A stretch of 64,000 bases of DNA from an uncultured Gemmatimonadales bacterium (GTDB taxonomy: Bacteria; Gemmatimonadota; Gemmatimonadetes; Gemmatimonadales; GWC2-71-9): NCBI GenBank assembly GCA_963846545.1, contig CAWJWG010000001.1:2890055-2954054 (forward strand). Reading direction: 5' to 3'. This document shows positions 1,287-59,147 of the stretch, piece by piece. The notes beneath the pieces were generated by a model that saw only the letters and a program-made list of their open reading frames with translations, searched no databases and was not told the origin of the DNA. The stretch's first letter is position 1. Each line of letters opens with the position of its first letter. Made by a program: the position numbers and the translations under genes.

Positions 1287-1377
1287 GAGCTAGGAGCTGT
1301 GAGCTATGAGCTGTGAGCTGTGAGCTATGAGCTACAAGCTACAAGCTCATAGCTCATAGCTCCTAGCTCCTAACTCA
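1287..1377. repeat. Inverted tandem-heptamer array, locus 1: 13 contiguous 7-nt units switching from GAGCTRT to TAGCTCN
   Basis: Units read directly: GAGCTAG GAGCTGT GAGCTAT GAGCTGT GAGCTGT GAGCTAT GAGCTAC AAGCTAC AAGCTCA TAGCTCA TAGCTCC TAGCTCC TAACTCA. Positions 1286-1312 are the reverse complement of 1344-1370 with one mismatch. The last unit contains the stop (1375-1377) of the 1375..1758 gene. Confidence 0.9.
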
Positions 1378-10119: not shown

Positions 10120-10295
10120 CTCCGCTCTAAGATGGCTCCGTCGTACAACCGATCCACGCGAGTCGAGATCCACGGAAGCCGGTGCAACTCCGGCGCGGCC
10201 CCGCCACTGTAACGGGCACCATACCTCGCTCATTCGCCACTGGGAAACCGGGAAGGCGAGCGAGGGCCCGAAGCCAGGAGACGTCTCACTCGTGC
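10120..10295 (+). promoter_or_regulatory. Cobalamin (B12) riboswitch
   Basis: Core GGAAGCCGGTGCAACTCCGGCGCGGCCCCGCCACTGTAACGGG (10174-10216), GCCACTGGGAAACCGGGAAGGCG (10244-10266), and the B12-box-like GAAGCCAGGAGAC (10270-10282). It lies upstream of a TonB-dependent receptor. The boundaries are approximate. Confidence 0.8.
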
Positions 10296-30219: not shown

Positions 30220-31326
30220 TCACGCCTTCGCGGCGGCCCGATTCGCCTGCTCGAACTCCTTCATGAACGCCACCAGCGCCTCGATCGCGGCACGGGGGCA
30301 CGCATTGTAGATGCTGGCCCGCATCCCGCCGGCGTTCCGGTGTCCCTTGAGGCCGTCGAGCCCGCGCTTGGTCGCCTCGCCGATGAACTTGGTCTCCAGC
30401 TCCTCGGTCGGCGCCCGGAAACACACGTTCATCATCGAGCGGCTGTCCACCTGGGCGGTGCCGCGGAAGAAGTCGCTCTGGTCGATATAGTCGTACAGCA
30501 GCGCGGCCTTCGCCTCGTTGTGCTTCGCCATCGCCGCCAGACCACCCTGGCCCTGGATCCACTTGAAGATCTCCCCCATCACGTAGATCCCGAAAGTCGG
30601 CGGCGTGTTGTACAGCGACTTCTCCGCCGCGTGGGTCCGGTACTGCAGCATCGTCGGCAGGGTCTTGGGGCCGGCCTCGACCAGGTCGTCACGAATGATC
30701 ACGAGCACCACGCCCGACGGCCCGAGGTTCTTCTGCGCGCCGGCGTAGATCAGCCCGTACTTGCTCACGTCGATCGGCCGGCTGTACATGTCGCTCGACG
30801 TGTCGGCCACGAGCGGCACGCCGGCGGGCACCGAGGGCTCCGCCCTCCACTGGGTGCCGTAGATCGTGTTGTTCGTCGTCAGGTGTACGTAGGCGGGCCG
30901 CTCCGAGTACGCGATCTCGCTCGGCTTCGGTATCCGGTCGAAGTTGGTCGCCTCCCCGGTCGCCGCGATGTGGACCTTCGCGCCCAGGATCTTGGCTTCC
31001 TTCACCGCCTTCTGCGCCCAGACACCGGTGAGCAGATAGTCCGCCGTCCGGTCCGCCGGCAGCAGGTTCATCGGCACCGTCGAGAACTGCAGCGACGCCC
31101 CGCCCTGGAGGAACAGCACGCGGTAGGTGTCGGGGATGCCCGCGAGGTCACGACACGCCTGCTCCGCCTCGTCACGGATCTTGTCGAACACCTTGCCCCG
31201 GTGACTGTGCTCCATGATCCCGATCCCGCTGCCCGCCGCGTCCCAGATGGCCTCCTGCGCCTTCTTGAGCACGGGCTCGGGGAGGACGGCGGGACCCGCG
31301 GAGAAATTGAAGATTCGCTTGCTCAT
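30220..31326 (-). CDS. serC: Phosphoserine aminotransferase
   Basis: ORF 30220..31335 trimmed to ATG 31324-31326 ([20 protein letters not shown]...), a class-V aminotransferase. It lies directly downstream of serA. Confidence 0.9.
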
Positions 31327-31338
31327 ACGCGCCACCGG

Positions 31339-32565
31339 TCAGAGGTCGGATGTGGGAGGGTCGATCTGGTTCAGCTCGACGCTGATGATATCGGCATTGC
31401 CGGATTTGATCTGCTCCAGCGCGTCGTTGCTCGGGGTGCCGTCGAGGTGGATCCGCGCCAGTGTGGCCTGCGCGCCATGGTAGATGATGTTCTCCACCTC
31501 TTCCACGTTGATCGACGCGGCGGCGAGGACGGCGAACACGTGGGCGAGGACGCCGGGTCGGTTCCGGTGCCGGATGACGAGCACGTGGGTCGCCGAGCTG
31601 CGGGCGAGGCGGTTGACCACGTTGGGGACCTCGCCTGTGGCCTGGAACGCCTGCACGATGCGGATCACCTCGTGCGCGATCGCCACCTGCGCCTGCTCGG
31701 TGGACGCGCCGATGTGATGGGTGCCGTAGACGCCCGGCGTGTCGAGGATCGGGCTGGTGAACTTGGCGCTGCTCCCCGCCGGCTCGTTCTGGAACACGTC
31801 GAGCCCGACGCGCAGATGCTTCTCGGCCACCGCCTGCCGGAGCGCGATCTCGTCCACCACCGAGCCGCGCGACGTGTTGATGAGATAGGCGCCGGGCCGC
31901 ATCGCGGCCAGGAACTCCGCGTTCACCAGGTGCTTGGTCTCGGCGTTGGCCGCCACGTTGATGGTGACCGCGTCGGCCAGCCGGGCCACCTCGAGCGGAC
32001 TCTGCGCATAGGCGAGGCCGAGGCGCTCCGCCTCCTCGTGGGTGAGCGTCCGCGACCAGGCCAGAACCCGCATGCCGAACGCGCGCGCCCGGGCCGCGAT
32101 CTCCTTGCCGATCTGTCCCAGACCCACGATGCCGAGCGTCCGGCCGTAGAGCCCGCGCGCCTTGGAGTACTCGCCCTTGCTCCACGTGCCCTTGCGGAGG
32201 TCGGCCACCTGATCGGGAATCCGCCGGTCGCACGCCAGCAGCAGGCCGAGCACCAGCTCGGCCACCGCGATCGAGTTCTTGCCGGGACAGTTGGAGATGA
32301 AGATGCCTCGGCTGGATGCGGTCGCTACATCGATGGTGTCGATGCCCGCGCCCGCGCGGATCACCAGCGTCAGCGAGGTGCCGGCGTGGAGCGTCGCCGC
32401 GGTGACCTTGGTGCCGCGCACGATCAGGATGTGCGGGTCGGCATCCTTGATCGCCCCGGGCAACGCCTCGGCGGTGAGATCCGGCTGCGACACGACGGTG
32501 CAGCCCAGCTCCTTCAGACCATCGATGCCGACCTTTTCGAACTTGTCGGCGATTAGCACCTTCAT
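31339..32565 (-). CDS. serA: D-3-phosphoglycerate dehydrogenase with C-terminal ACT domain
   Basis: ORF track, 408 aa. NAD motif GIVGLGQIGKEIA, catalytic ...THHIGAST, and a C-terminal ACT-like regulatory segment. Confidence 0.9.
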   Translation of the reverse strand: MKVLIADKFEKVGIDGLKELGCTVVSQPDLTAEALPGAIKDADPHILIVRGTKVTAATLHAGTSLTLVIRAGAGIDTIDVATASSRGIFISNCPGKNSIAVAELVLGLLLACDRRIPDQVADLRKGTWSKGEYSKARGLYGRTLGIVGLGQIGKEIAARARAFGMRVLAWSRTLTHEEAERLGLAYAQSPLEVARLADAVTINVAANAETKHLVNAEFLAAMRPGAYLINTSRGSVVDEIALRQAVAEKHLRVGLDVFQNEPAGSSAKFTSPILDTPGVYGTHHIGASTEQAQVAIAHEVIRIVQAFQATGEVPNVVNRLARSSATHVLVIRHRNRPGVLAHVFAVLAAASINVEEVENIIYHGAQATLARIHLDGTPSNDALEQIKSGNADIISVELNQIDPPTSDL

Positions 32566-32588
32566 TGGAGCTCCACGAAATGAACGGA

Positions 32589-32688
32589 AAGCTATGAGCT
32601 ATGAGCTATGAGCTAGAAGCTATCGGAGGTGCTTGCCGCGCGTTGGGATCGGTGCCCGACATAGCTCATAGCTCATAGCTTATAGCTC
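32589..32688. repeat. Inverted tandem-heptamer array, locus 2: 5 x (R)AGCTAK, 37-nt GC-rich spacer, 4 x ATAGCTY
   Basis: Left arm AAGCTAT GAGCTAT GAGCTAT GAGCTAG AAGCTAT (32589-32623). Spacer 32624-32660. Right arm ATAGCTC ATAGCTC ATAGCTT ATAGCTC (32661-32688). The DUF1015 stop TGA (32687-32689) lies in the last unit, and the serA start is 23 nt beyond the other end. Confidence 0.9.
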
Positions 32689-33910
32689 ACAACCGGTGCA
32701 CGAACAGCCCGCTGCGCAGCTTGGGCTCGAACCAGGTGCTCTTGGGCGGCATGATGTGGCCCGCGTCGGACACGGCCATGAGCTGGTCCAGCGTGGTGGG
32801 ATAGAGCGAGAAGCCGACCGCCATCTCGCCCGATTCCACCCGCCGCTGAAGCTCGGCCGGTCCCCGAATCCCGCCCACGAAGTCGATACGCTTGTCCGTC
32901 CGAGGGTCACCGATGCCGAGGATCGGCCCGAGCACGCGATCCTGGAGCAACGACACGTCGAGCGACGCGATCGGATCCGAGCGGTCGATGCTCGCCGGGT
33001 CCAGCTCCAGGCGATGCCAGGCGCCGCCGAGGTAGAGCGCAAAGACTCCACTGCGATCCGGCGCTGGATCACGGGTCGGCGTGAGCTTGCCCAGCTTCCC
33101 GATCCGGGCGAGCACCTCGGCCGGTGTCTGACCCTTCAGGTCGCGCACCATGCGATTGTAGGGAAGAATCCGCAGCTCGCTCGACGGAAAGAGCACCGCC
33201 AGGAACCAGTTGTACTCCTCGTCCCCGTGGTGGCTGGGGTTGGCCGCCCGGCGCTCCTTTCCCGCGCGCCAGGCGCTGGCGGAGCGGTGGTGTCCATCGG
33301 CGACGTAGGAGTGCGGCACGGCGCCGAAGGCGCGGACCAGCGCGGCGGGATCGGGCACCGTCCACACGGTGTGGCGCACGCCGTCGGGCGCGGTGAAGTC
33401 GTAGAGCGGTGCCGTCGCCACGATCCGCTCGACCTGCGCGTCGATCGCCGGCTCCGCACGATAGGTGAGAAAGACGGGCTCGGCATTGGCGTTCAGGGTG
33501 AGGACGTGGCGCGTGCGATCGTCTTCCTTGTCCTGCCGGGTCTTCTCGTGCTTCCGGATGAGATCGCGCTCGTAGTCGTCCACGTGCACGCACCCCACCA
33601 CACCGGTCTGGGTCCGGCCGTCCATCACCTGGCGGTAGAGGAACAGCCCGGGCTTCGCGTCCTCGACCAGCGTCCCTGAGGAGAGCAGCTCATCGAGGGC
33701 CGCCCGTGCCCGCGCGTAGATCCGCGGGTCGTACGGGTCCACCTCCGGGGGGAGGTCGATGTCCGACCGGCCCACGTGCAGGAAGCTGTGCGGGTTCCCC
33801 CGGGCCAACTCGGCGGCCTCGGCGCGGTTCACCACGTCGTAGGGCACCGCGGCGACGCGGGCCGCGAGGTCTGGCCGGGGACGGACTGCCCGGAAGGGGT
33901 TCAGGCGCAT
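32687..33910 (-). CDS. DUF1015 domain-containing protein
   Basis: ORF track, 407 aa. MRLNPFRAVRPRPDLAARVAAVPYDVV... and ADGHHRSASA are typical of DUF1015. It commonly neighbours serA/serC. Confidence 0.8.
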   Translation of the reverse strand: MRLNPFRAVRPRPDLAARVAAVPYDVVNRAEAAELARGNPHSFLHVGRSDIDLPPEVDPYDPRIYARARAALDELLSSGTLVEDAKPGLFLYRQVMDGRTQTGVVGCVHVDDYERDLIRKHEKTRQDKEDDRTRHVLTLNANAEPVFLTYRAEPAIDAQVERIVATAPLYDFTAPDGVRHTVWTVPDPAALVRAFGAVPHSYVADGHHRSASAWRAGKERRAANPSHHGDEEYNWFLAVLFPSSELRILPYNRMVRDLKGQTPAEVLARIGKLGKLTPTRDPAPDRSGVFALYLGGAWHRLELDPASIDRSDPIASLDVSLLQDRVLGPILGIGDPRTDKRIDFVGGIRGPAELQRRVESGEMAVGFSLYPTTLDQLMAVSDAGHIMPPKSTWFEPKLRSGLFVHRL

Positions 33911-57764: not shown

Positions 57765-58964
57765 ATGCTGTCGCTCAAGCTGGACCTGCTGCAGACCCTG
57801 AGCCTCGCCGCGCTCCTCTACTTCGTCGGCCTCAAGATCCGGCAGCGGATCGCCTGGCTCGACCGGCTCAACATTCCGGCGGCCGTGGTGGGCGGATTGC
57901 TGTTCGCGCTCCTGGTGCTCCTGGGCCGGGACCGGTTCCTGAGCGTCCAGCTCGATACCTCCGCCCAGACCCTGCTCAGCGTCGCCTTCTTCAGCACGAT
58001 CGGCATGGGCGCGAGTGTCGCCTTACTGCGGGCCGGCGGGCTCCAGGTGGTGATCTTCCTGGTCTTCGCCACCCTCTTCTGCTTCGTGCAGAACTTCCTC
58101 GGCATGGCCATCGCGCGAGGCTTCGGCGAGCACCCCCTGCTGGGAGTCATGGCCGGGTCGGTCACCCTGGTCGGCGGGCCCGCGACCGGGCTCGCCTTCG
58201 CGCCGCTGCTCGAGAGCGCCGGCCTGGTGGGGGCCGGCACGCTCGCCCTGACGGCGGCCACGTTCGGCATCATCTCCGGGGGACTCACCGGTACGCCGAT
58301 CGGCACCTGGCTCATCCGGAGGCACCGGCTGACCCCCACCGGCATCGGGGGCGCCGGCACGGAGGACCTGAAGCCGGTGCCCTTGATCGTGGAGTCCGAC
58401 CGGGAGGACGCTCCACTCATCCTCAACATGATCCTCCTCGCCGTGGCGATGGGCATCGGCAGCATCCTGAGCGCGGGGTTCACGCGCCTGGAGTGGACGC
58501 TGCCGGCGTACATCGGGGCGATGATCGTCGCGTCGCTGCTCCGGAACCTGGACGATGCCACCGGGTGGTTCCGCATCGACCCGGCGGCAATGGATTTCGT
58601 CGGCGGTTTCGCGCTCAACATCTTCCTGGTCGTGGCGCTGATGGATCTGAAGCTCTGGCAGCTGGCTGGACAGGCGCTGCCGCTGTTCGTCATCCTCGCG
58701 GCCCAGGTCACCGTCATCGGGGTGTTCGCCCTCACCGCGTCCTTCCGGCTCATGGGACGTGACTACGACTCGGCCGTGATGGCGAGTGGGTTCGTGGGCT
58801 TCGCGCTCGGCACCACCGCGAACGCGGTCGTGAACATGCGGGCGCTGGTGACGAAATACGGGCCCGCGCCCCGGGCGTTCCTCGTGGTGCCGCTCGTCGG
58901 GGCGTTCTTCATCGACTTCGTGAACGCGATCATAATTACGTTCTTCGTAAACATGATGAGATAG
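57765..58964 (+). CDS. gltS: Sodium/glutamate symporter
   Basis: ORF track, 399 aa. MLSLKLDLLQTLSLAALLYFVGLKIRQRIAWLDRLNIPAAVVGGLLFAL is a typical GltS N-terminus. ~10-12 TM segments. Confidence 0.85.
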   Translation: MLSLKLDLLQTLSLAALLYFVGLKIRQRIAWLDRLNIPAAVVGGLLFALLVLLGRDRFLSVQLDTSAQTLLSVAFFSTIGMGASVALLRAGGLQVVIFLVFATLFCFVQNFLGMAIARGFGEHPLLGVMAGSVTLVGGPATGLAFAPLLESAGLVGAGTLALTAATFGIISGGLTGTPIGTWLIRRHRLTPTGIGGAGTEDLKPVPLIVESDREDAPLILNMILLAVAMGIGSILSAGFTRLEWTLPAYIGAMIVASLLRNLDDATGWFRIDPAAMDFVGGFALNIFLVVALMDLKLWQLAGQALPLFVILAAQVTVIGVFALTASFRLMGRDYDSAVMASGFVGFALGTTANAVVNMRALVTKYGPAPRAFLVVPLVGAFFIDFVNAIIITFFVNMMR

Positions 58965-59120
58965 CTATGAGCTGTGAGCTATGAGCTGTGAGTGAGCTAT
59001 GAGCTATGAGGGGCATGTAGATCGGGGCTCGTCGCTTCGGCCCACGGTTCTTGCTTCTAGCTCATAGCTTCTAGCTCATAGCTTCTAGCTTATAGCTCAT
59101 AGCTCATAGCTCATAGCTCA
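58962..59120. repeat. Inverted tandem-heptamer array, locus 3 (largest): ~7 x GAGCTRT, 47-nt spacer, 9 x TAGCTYA
   Basis: Left arm TAGCTAT GAGCTGT GAGCTAT GAGCTGT GAGT GAGCTAT GAGCTAT GAG (58962-59010). Spacer 59011-59057. Right arm TAGCTCA TAGCTTC TAGCTCA TAGCTTC TAGCTTA TAGCTCA x4 (59058-59120). The gltS stop TAG (58962-58964) is the first triplet of the array. Confidence 0.9.
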
Positions 59121-59147
59121 CAGCGCACAGCCCCCACGGAACTCCAA

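Follow-up and report, generated by a model that had tools for sequence, protein, structure and literature searches.

Convergent pairs of tandem heptamers were described in Xanthomonas campestris and X. citri, in which 70 to 75 pairs of GGGAATC arrays occur per genome, 89 to 93% of them intergenic and nearer to the upstream open reading frame (ORF) (Rehm et al. 2015, PMC4692102). At a given gene, these pairs differ in length and sequence from species to species, and the study found no function for them (PMC4692102). In Geobacter metallireducens, paired tandem-repeat classes were reported with the units GTTGCTYN (four copies), TCTCCGTS[Y] (three copies) and MTYCTGA (five copies) (Aklujkar et al. 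2009, PMC2700814). The paired sites lie on opposite strands with varying distances between them. One is located between proB and proA, and some are linked to insertion sequence elements; the authors interpreted the sites, without a test, as binding sites of a global regulator or of integration host factor (IHF)/HU (PMC2700814). Among the cyanobacterial short tandemly repeated repetitive (STRR) sequences and the TAACTGA heptamers of Beggiatoaceae, nearly all arrays are direct, with an orientation relative to the start codon downstream of them, and only one of 170 sets was inverted; polymerase slippage was proposed as the source of the preference for 7 nt (MacGregor 2015, PMC4679880). Long simple-sequence repeats were treated by Mrazek et al. 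2007, as cited in the same article (PMC4679880). Here, we describe a paired heptamer array located between a DUF1015 gene and serA in an uncultured soil Gemmatimonadales bacterium (assembly GCA_963846545.1). The array, referred to as locus 2, occupies positions 32589 to 32688 of the window, i.e., the whole 64,000-nt stretch that was analyzed (contig CAWJWG010000001.1, positions 2,890,055 to 2,954,054).

Among the long microsatellites between bacterial genes, tandem heptamers are to our knowledge the most over-represented, and we know of nobody who has established the reason for this or their role. Locus 2 was assigned to the paired heptamer arrays of the Xanthomonas/Geobacter kind because its architecture matches the published descriptions. 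The reading that we favor, with a probability of roughly 0.6, is that locus 2 is one copy of a dispersed set of hypermutable paired (inverted) heptamer microsatellites, of the kind formed by GGGAATC in Xanthomonas, which sits in a permissive operon slot and loops out of the messenger RNA (mRNA) as a hairpin.

Architecture, copies and strain variation of the array

The left arm of locus 2 (Table 1) consists of the units AAGCTAT GAGCTAT GAGCTAT GAGCTAG AAGCTAT, with the consensus (RAGCTAT)5, and the right arm of ATAGCTC ATAGCTC ATAGCTT ATAGCTC, with the consensus (ATAGCTY)4. The two are separated by the spacer CGGAGGTGCTTGCCGCGCGTTGGGATCGGTGCCCGAC, whose in-phase heptamers, checked for decayed units, showed no trace of them. 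The original prediction had given the units, the 37-nt spacer and the coordinates correctly to the base, as direct reading showed, and had also placed correctly the DUF1015 stop codon (TGA, inside the outermost unit) and the serA ATG, 23 nt past the array. For both arms, Tandem Repeats Finder (TRF) returned a period of 7, the copy numbers being 4.9 and 4.3. The two-unit pattern AGCTATGAGCTAT, with at most 2 mismatches allowed, had 29 matches in the window, compared with 0.28 expected from shuffles, and 29 matches were reached in 0 of 100 shuffles. All 29 matches were confined to locus 2 and its two sister copies, loci 1 and 3.

On the mRNA, which corresponds to the minus strand, the right arm is the 5' arm of the predicted hairpin, its outermost unit including the DUF1015 stop codon, and the left arm is the 3' arm. 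The fold-energy check that had been proposed along with the original prediction gave a stem of about 32 bp with −55.2 kcal/mol on the mRNA-sense strand and −59.5 kcal/mol on the other strand; the z score was about −6, and none of 200 shuffles was equally stable. The repeat (GAGCTAT)n contains ATG and TGA every 21 nt, encoding the mini-ORF M-S-Y-E-L-stop, and has a stop codon in all three frames, and its complementary arm has TAG in all three frames. A ribosome entering the array from either side would thus stop within 21 nt. This all-frame stop property fails for several of the units found in relatives, e.g., GGTCGAA.

The genome (G000; a 3.82-Mb assembly of three contigs with 69% GC) was searched for further copies, defined as chains of AGCT cores in 7-nt phase. 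About 37 loci were found on both large contigs, approximately one per 100 kb, compared with one or two chains expected by chance, and the AGCTATG type was the sole abundant family among all period-7 arrays of the genome. All 37 loci are located outside the called genes. According to gene calls based crudely on GC at third codon positions, 21 loci lie between tandem genes, 9 between convergent genes and 7 between divergent genes (background, 1793, 372 and 370, respectively); between tandem genes, the array follows the preceding stop codon at a distance of 0 to 6 nt in about 15 of 18 cases, the next start codon being farther away and at a more variable distance. The order of the arms is fixed: the GAGCTAT arm precedes the ATAGCTC arm in each of the 14 loci that have three or more units of both types and in 21 of the 23 loci with any mixture of units, the two exceptions being fragments of 3 to 4 units. 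Arm lengths are often very unequal at other loci, e.g., 3 and 10 or 11 and 3 units.

The spacers are 0 to 97 nt long, and an all-against-all short blastn comparison of 11 of them gave only chance matches of 7 to 9 nt. The earlier claim that the arms, and not a cargo sequence, are conserved therefore holds genome-wide. At the loci other than locus 2, agreement with the unit is 3.56, 2.5 and 2.43 of 7 positions for the first, second and third in-phase spacer heptamers, compared with 1.67 by chance; the first one to three spacer heptamers at these loci are decayed units. The explanation of the spacer as a decayed array was rejected for locus 2 itself. The original prediction had implied a discrete functional element specific to this operon; this was not supported, as locus 2 is one copy of a genome- and lineage-wide repeat class.

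Short arrays of the same family adjoin tRNA-like sequences, recognized by eye from T-arm-like flanks, at C1:813776, C1:815041-816070 and C1:2323737. At C3:323018-323203, the minus strand of a 97-nt spacer contains, as read from the sequence, a GC-rich hairpin with a T-run after it, so that an apparently ordinary terminator lies between the arrays.

Intergenic dispersal, inverted ends, a fixed polarity and the absence of the element from this site in the closest relative (G013) might also be expected from a mobile element, either like a miniature inverted-repeat transposable element (MITE) or like repetitive extragenic palindromes (REPs) and their paired form (REPINs), with the heptamer arrays as terminal inverted repeats spread by a transposase. 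REPs are single imperfect palindromes of 20 to 40 nt, REPINs have a fixed spacer, and they co-occur with RAYT (Y1 transposase). The REP/REPIN-RAYT identity was rejected: no match to Y1_Tnp (PF01797) was found in G000, while 6 control genomes were positive, and the arms are variable numbers of 7-mers around unrelated spacers of 0 to 97 nt rather than a palindromic unit of 20 to 40 nt with a fixed spacer. A MITE was rejected on the unrelated spacers and the lack of consistent target-site duplications in the flanks. Whole-unit changes of arm length between strains fit slippage and not transposition. A mobile origin is thus largely refuted and would be very surprising.

Sister strains were found by exact-protein look-up among contigs of the ENA metagenome assembly ERZ25039516. 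All three loci of the window differ between near-identical strains by unit-sized or unit-patterned changes, while the flanks are about 99.3 to 99.9% identical. At locus 2, an ERZ25039516 contig is 99.85% identical to the window over 7,224 nt, and the sole indel in this alignment is one extra unit, one base short (a missing C), in the serA-side arm. At locus 3, the sister strain has 10 nt more in one arm and 12 nt more in the other, with identical aligned flanks and, over the whole 4.2-kb locus, 4 mismatches and 3 gaps. Three alleles of locus 1 were seen, two of them within one assembly; they differ around the hairpin apex and include an identical T-to-C change in three adjacent units. The alleles come from metagenome assemblies that are probably long-read; one short-read contig ends inside the array. 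The unit-sized and unit-patterned differences are not assembly error. The array is hypermutable in that its unit number varies between near-identical strains, and slippage within each arm is supported by these alleles.

A dedicated repeat-writing process was considered as another source of such arrays. In this explanation, an activity that recognizes a structure or copies a template would write new 7-nt units, or overwrite existing ones, in a symmetrical manner on both sides of an intergenic site, with the G-richer arm first, and would continually renew arrays at preferred junctions. Slippage alone does not cover the polarity, the constant period or the replacement of units at one junction at the species level, and the inner array edges, which grade into decayed units as described above, would also suit such an activity. 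However, there is no candidate enzyme or template, and the unit-sized changes in single arms resemble ordinary slippage. The variant patterns of the two arms of a locus are not mirror images, which indicates that neither arm is a unit-by-unit copy of the other. A writing activity is therefore considered highly improbable.

In the reading of locus 2 as a hypermutable paired microsatellite, each arm would lengthen and shorten through replication slippage, and the units would be homogenized among loci through exchange between arrays. Such concerted evolution would account both for the species' own unit and for the differing units at orthologous junctions. The arrays would persist or recur in intergenic slots where they are harmless, which begin at the stop codon and end shortly before the ribosome-binding site. 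The arms are predicted to pair in the polycistronic DUF1015-serA-serC transcript, and the stem would loop the insert out, which would keep the stop codon and the ribosome-binding site of serA about as near to each other as they are in array-free relatives. Owing to this looping-out, the element would be tolerated and would at most modulate expression mildly, as an RNA pause site or a barrier to 3' exonucleases whose strength varies with unit number.

The DUF1015-serA junction in relatives

The exact GAGCTAT repeat was found at low counts in 8 of 24 same-genus genomes and in none outside the genus. Most relatives are represented by fragmented short-read metagenome-assembled genomes (MAGs), in which arrays are under-represented. 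When only a core was required (GTC every 7 nt, four times, with the reversed pattern as control), arrays were detected in 84 of 101 same-genus genomes, often with 50 to 390 matches; the control usually had about 0 to 10 matches and was high in a few genomes. The GTC-core units are typical of the species (GGTCGAA, GGTCTCA/GGTCGCA, GAGTCAC, GGGTCTA and GGTCGTA), and in nearly all listed pairs the forward array is followed 40 to 100 nt on by the reverse array. No GTC-type arrays were found in G000. The distribution of the GTC-core pattern is patchy across the family and the order, and the pattern is rarer in the rest of the phylum.

At the DUF1015-serA junction itself, the units found in relatives include GGTCGAA, GTCTAGA, TGGTCTT and CAGTCGT. 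Inverted arrays are present in G004, (AGGTCGA)n..(TCGACCT)n, in G007, (AGTCTAG)..(CTAGACT), and in G008, (TGGTCNT)..(ANGACCA). In these three relatives, both arms are intact, and the array starts 0 to 8 nt past the stop codon and ends about 12 to 27 nt before the ATG. G010 has a degenerate left arm with (GACTCTA)n, and the junctions of G005, G002 and G014 carry short or one-armed remnants. The junction of G015 (L016) is a hybrid, with a left arm of GGGAGCT, which has the AGCT core of G000, and a right arm complementary to GGGAGTC, which has the GTC core of most of the genus. This hybrid may have caught a unit type in transition through a TC/CT swap. In G013, G001, G003, G006, G009, G011, G012, G016, G017, G018 and G067, the gap is plain, about 30 to 45 nt long and without an array. 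On a DUF1015 tree, the presence and absence of junction arrays are scattered. In G008 (L021, 12582-12692), a second inverted pair, (GTCTTTG)..(GACCAAC), follows serA, so that both operon junctions are occupied.

Other genera of the family carry inverted arrays (G142 and G267) or direct arrays (G216 and G279) at the same junction, and six genera carry none. Outside the family, an array is present in the Gemmatimonadales genome MAG153, (CGCTRTC)..(GCGGATA). In Acidobacteriota, in which the gene order DUF1015-serA is kept, junction arrays were found in L070, (TGGTCTT)4..(AAGACCA)4, in L068, (TTTGATT)..(AATCAAA), and in L033, (AGTGACA)4..(CGTCACC)4, the last immediately after the DUF1015 stop codon. 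No junction array was found in four other Acidobacteriota loci or in three loci from other groups, L098 (Rhodothermales), L048 and L100.

At the junction of locus 3, where synteny is poor, G014 is the only relative with an array, built of a 9-nt unit, and general positional conservation of the arrays was therefore rejected. In G014 (L112), inverted arrays of 9-nt units, (GACGGGAAA)n ... (TTTCCCGTC)n, with at least 12 copies in one arm, are located downstream of the Glt_symporter ortholog, which indicates that the period is not always 7 in the genus.

These comparisons also bear on the explanation that the arrays are iterated DNA sites for a nucleoid-associated or other DNA-binding protein whose specificity depends on the species, the two arms binding oppositely oriented protein arrays. 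A single unit family genome-wide, with a fixed inward-pointing polarity, a density of about one copy per 100 kb on both large replicons and species-specific units that keep a RGTC/AGCT core and a constant 7-bp period would all be in line with this, as would the paired sites of G. metallireducens (3 to 5 tandem units of 7 to 9 nt), for which global-regulator or IHF/HU binding was proposed (PMC2700814). However, a single genome of Acidobacteriota, or of some Gemmatimonadales, has different units at different loci, which disfavors a single sequence-specific reader. In addition, the copy number varies freely between strains, a 7-bp period places successive sites on different faces of the helix, and no candidate protein is known. 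Such a function would be conceivable here but is judged improbable.

The original prediction had named uniform read-through without processing, together with a lack of conservation of the array at the junction in close relatives, as signs of a neutral slippage product. For the comparison with relatives, the outcome was divided. In agreement with slippage, the array is missing in the closest relative, G013 (85% amino acid identity), and about half of the genus, which have a plain gap of about 35 nt, and the unit number varies between near-identical strains. On the other side, arrays of other units are present at the same junction in many species, in other genera and in another phylum, which plain neutral slippage did not predict.

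Several points weigh against a neutral microsatellite at this position. Junction arrays were found in 6 to 9 of 20 species of the genus, in 4 of 11 other genera of the family with the DUF1015-serA adjacency, in MAG153 and in 3 of 7 Acidobacteriota loci. Since only about 1 to 3% of the intergenic gaps per genome carry arrays, this recurrence is far above the average rate, and a selected role at the DUF1015-serA junction would be compatible with it. Plain slippage does not account for the recurrence, for the fixed polarity or for the single unit family at about 37 loci, and the forward-then-reverse order also holds for the GTC-core arrays of relatives. The concerted evolution between loci behind the uniformity of the units is something that we infer, and the RNA hairpin and its neutrality are predictions. 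Some single-base differences within the arrays, such as the C missing from the extra unit, may be assembly error.

Another explanation is an intercistronic RNA hairpin kept by selection. Such a hairpin would set the relative output of the upstream and downstream genes, e.g., by blocking 3' exonucleases, by pausing or partly terminating RNA polymerase or by positioning terminating ribosomes near the ribosome-binding site of serA, and the unit number would be a tunable heritable dial. The predicted stem is very stable, begins at the stop codon and leaves the ribosome-binding site free, junction arrays recur in two phyla, and both arms of locus 3 are longer together in the sister strain. The same placement is found in several species despite other units, indicating that the complementarity of the arms survives complete replacement of the unit. 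Nevertheless, the relatives with a plain gap, including the closest one, have no hairpin, the arms are very unequal at other loci, no U-tract terminator is present, and arrays also occur between divergent genes.

The sense strand has no stability advantage either: among same-strand loci, the antisense fold was the more stable in 7 of 8, locus 2 included. Selection at the RNA level on the sense strand, as judged from G-U asymmetry, was rejected on this ground. The top-strand fold was more stable than the bottom-strand fold at 10 of 14 two-armed loci; on contig C1, this was the case at all 6 loci beyond the GC-skew maximum (1.45 Mb) and at 1 of 3 before it, with one tie. In this small sample, the bias may reflect a replication-strand asymmetry of G-T versus A-C mismatches between the arms.

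RNase III, the obvious enzyme for long duplex RNA, was not detected in the 22 Gemmatimonadales genomes searched, which also argues against a selected hairpin. An RNase III processing site had been the first mechanistic guess for locus 2 and was ruled out because no RNase III domain was found in G000 or in the 21 other genomes. PF14622 and PF00636 had no match in G000, the ERLEFLGD motif was absent from its six-frame translation, and PF00636 had no match in 20 other Gemmatimonadales, several of them 98 to 100% complete in at most 10 contigs, or in MAG153. Of 14 other soil genomes, 12 were positive in the same search, as were 8 control bacteria. If RNase III has been lost throughout the order, this would be notable in itself. 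A general link between the absence of RNase III and the presence of arrays was rejected, as array-bearing Acidobacteriota have RNase III. Taken together, a selected hairpin is possible but not likely.

A broader explanation is that the arrays are the footprint of an undescribed polarity-aware process or reader. This would keep the 7-nt period, the G-richer arm first and one unit per species, and would repeatedly install or rewrite arrays at certain operon junctions, with DUF1015-serA preferred in Gemmatimonadota and Acidobacteriota, so that the unit number would act as a heritable dial on upstream-to-downstream expression in a lineage without RNase III. We consider this unlikely.

Gene setting and rejected identities

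The array begins at the DUF1015 stop codon, ends 23 nt short of the serA start codon (ATG at 32565-32563) and fills exactly the dispensable part of the gap. A GGAG ribosome-binding motif at 32571-32574 is located outside the predicted stem and outside the repeat. The earlier description of the array as lying inside what looks like a DUF1015-serA-serC operon was borne out by the same-strand gene string (Table 1), in which the gap between serA and serC is as short as 3 nt, by the short gap of about 30 to 45 nt in array-free relatives and by the order kept in Acidobacteriota. DUF1015 is located directly before serA, with serC following in this genome, in Gemmatimonadales and several Acidobacteriota, and this adjacency suggests that the uncharacterized DUF1015 protein works in or with serine biosynthesis.

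Table 1. Positions in the window of locus 2, its sister copies and the adjacent genes
Feature	Position	Strand	Basis or remark
Left arm of locus 2, five tandem heptamers, F type on + strand	32589..32623	.	Direct reading, TRF, pattern count
Spacer of locus 2, 37 nt, 73% GC, loop region of predicted hairpin	32624..32660	.	Direct reading
Right arm of locus 2, four tandem heptamers, R type on + strand	32661..32688	.	Direct reading, TRF, pattern count, fold
Sister copy, locus 1, without spacer	1287..1377	.	Same family
Sister copy, locus 3, largest in window	58963..59124	.	Same family
DUF1015 gene, 407 aa	32687..33910	-	PF06245, E 1.8e-102; TGA stop 32687-32689
serA-like D-3-phosphoglycerate dehydrogenase gene	31339..32565	-	2-Hacid_dh and ACT domains
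serC-like class-V aminotransferase gene	30220..31335	-	3 nt after serA

No consensus site of a sigma-70-like promoter was found at the locus. The terminator search covered positions 32300 to 33000 and gave no terminator motif on either strand, and an intrinsic terminator was rejected on this result. No Rfam family reached its gathering score over locus 2. A permissive Rfam scan gave generic microRNA-precursor hairpins over the array, the best with 30.8 bits where 100 would be needed, and a 14.9-bit small RNA match beside it. The sole Rfam family above its gathering score in the window was a cobalamin riboswitch (RF00174, 74.7 bits) at 10172-10284 (+). Avoidance of a restriction site with the AGCT core, or a decoy for it, was rejected, since AGCT is not avoided genome-wide (observed-to-expected ratio, 1.22; 16,776 sites). 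A literature search on the unit sequence found nothing relevant.

Comparison with described repeat systems

The DUF1015-serA junction represents a natural experiment, in which one conserved serine-biosynthesis junction exists in four states: without an array, with at least five different units, with one arm, and with differing unit numbers in near-identical strains. A comparison of these natural alleles could distinguish hairpins that are neutral passengers from tunable operon punctuation. The host order appears to be without RNase III.

Among systems with other architectures, intrinsic terminators have a GC-rich stem of 5 to 12 bp followed by a U-run. Locus 2 resembles them, and intercistronic stabilizer hairpins, in having a predicted stable stem-loop right after a stop codon. 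In contrast to intrinsic terminators, it has no U-tract, its predicted stem has about 32 bp and a higher AT content than the genome, and it is symmetrical on both strands. With REPs, bacterial interspersed mosaic elements and REPINs, it shares a dispersed, species-specific, intergenic arrangement of inverted doublets after stop codons, with long mRNA hairpins that are predicted here, but it is built of tandem 7-mers with a variable spacer, and RAYT is absent. Like the STRR sequences, the TAACTGA repeats and the repeats of Mrazek et al., the arrays are over-represented intergenic tandem heptamers whose function is not established.

The sites of G. metallireducens are closer. Both systems consist of paired short tandem arrays (units of 7 to 9 nt, 3 to 5 copies) in dozens of copies unique to one species of the genus, and both have copies inside amino acid biosynthesis operons (proB-proA in G. 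metallireducens and DUF1015-serA here). The strain-level variation in unit number seen here was not reported for G. metallireducens (PMC2700814).

The closest match is to the Xanthomonas pairs. Shared features are tandem 7-nt units in two convergent arrays on opposite strands, with the G-richer arm first and the potential to form a stem-loop; an intergenic position in about 90% or more of the cases, much closer to where the upstream ORF ends than to the following gene; and variation in length and sequence at the same gene pair between related genomes, represented here by the strain alleles and the other units at DUF1015-serA. The two differ in the unit, as GAGCTAT has no GG run and no G-tracts and is thus unable to form a G-quadruplex, the structure proposed as the rationale of the Xanthomonas repeats. 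This property defines the published sub-type and not the architecture, and its absence from the unit described here indicates that the G-quadruplex rationale is not general for the architecture. Further differences are the host phylum, Gemmatimonadota, the replacement of the unit between species at one orthologous junction, and a lineage without a detectable RNase III domain. The architecture is already known from Xanthomonas, and locus 2 is an ordinary example of it, but arrays of other units are present at the same junction in many relatives and in another phylum.

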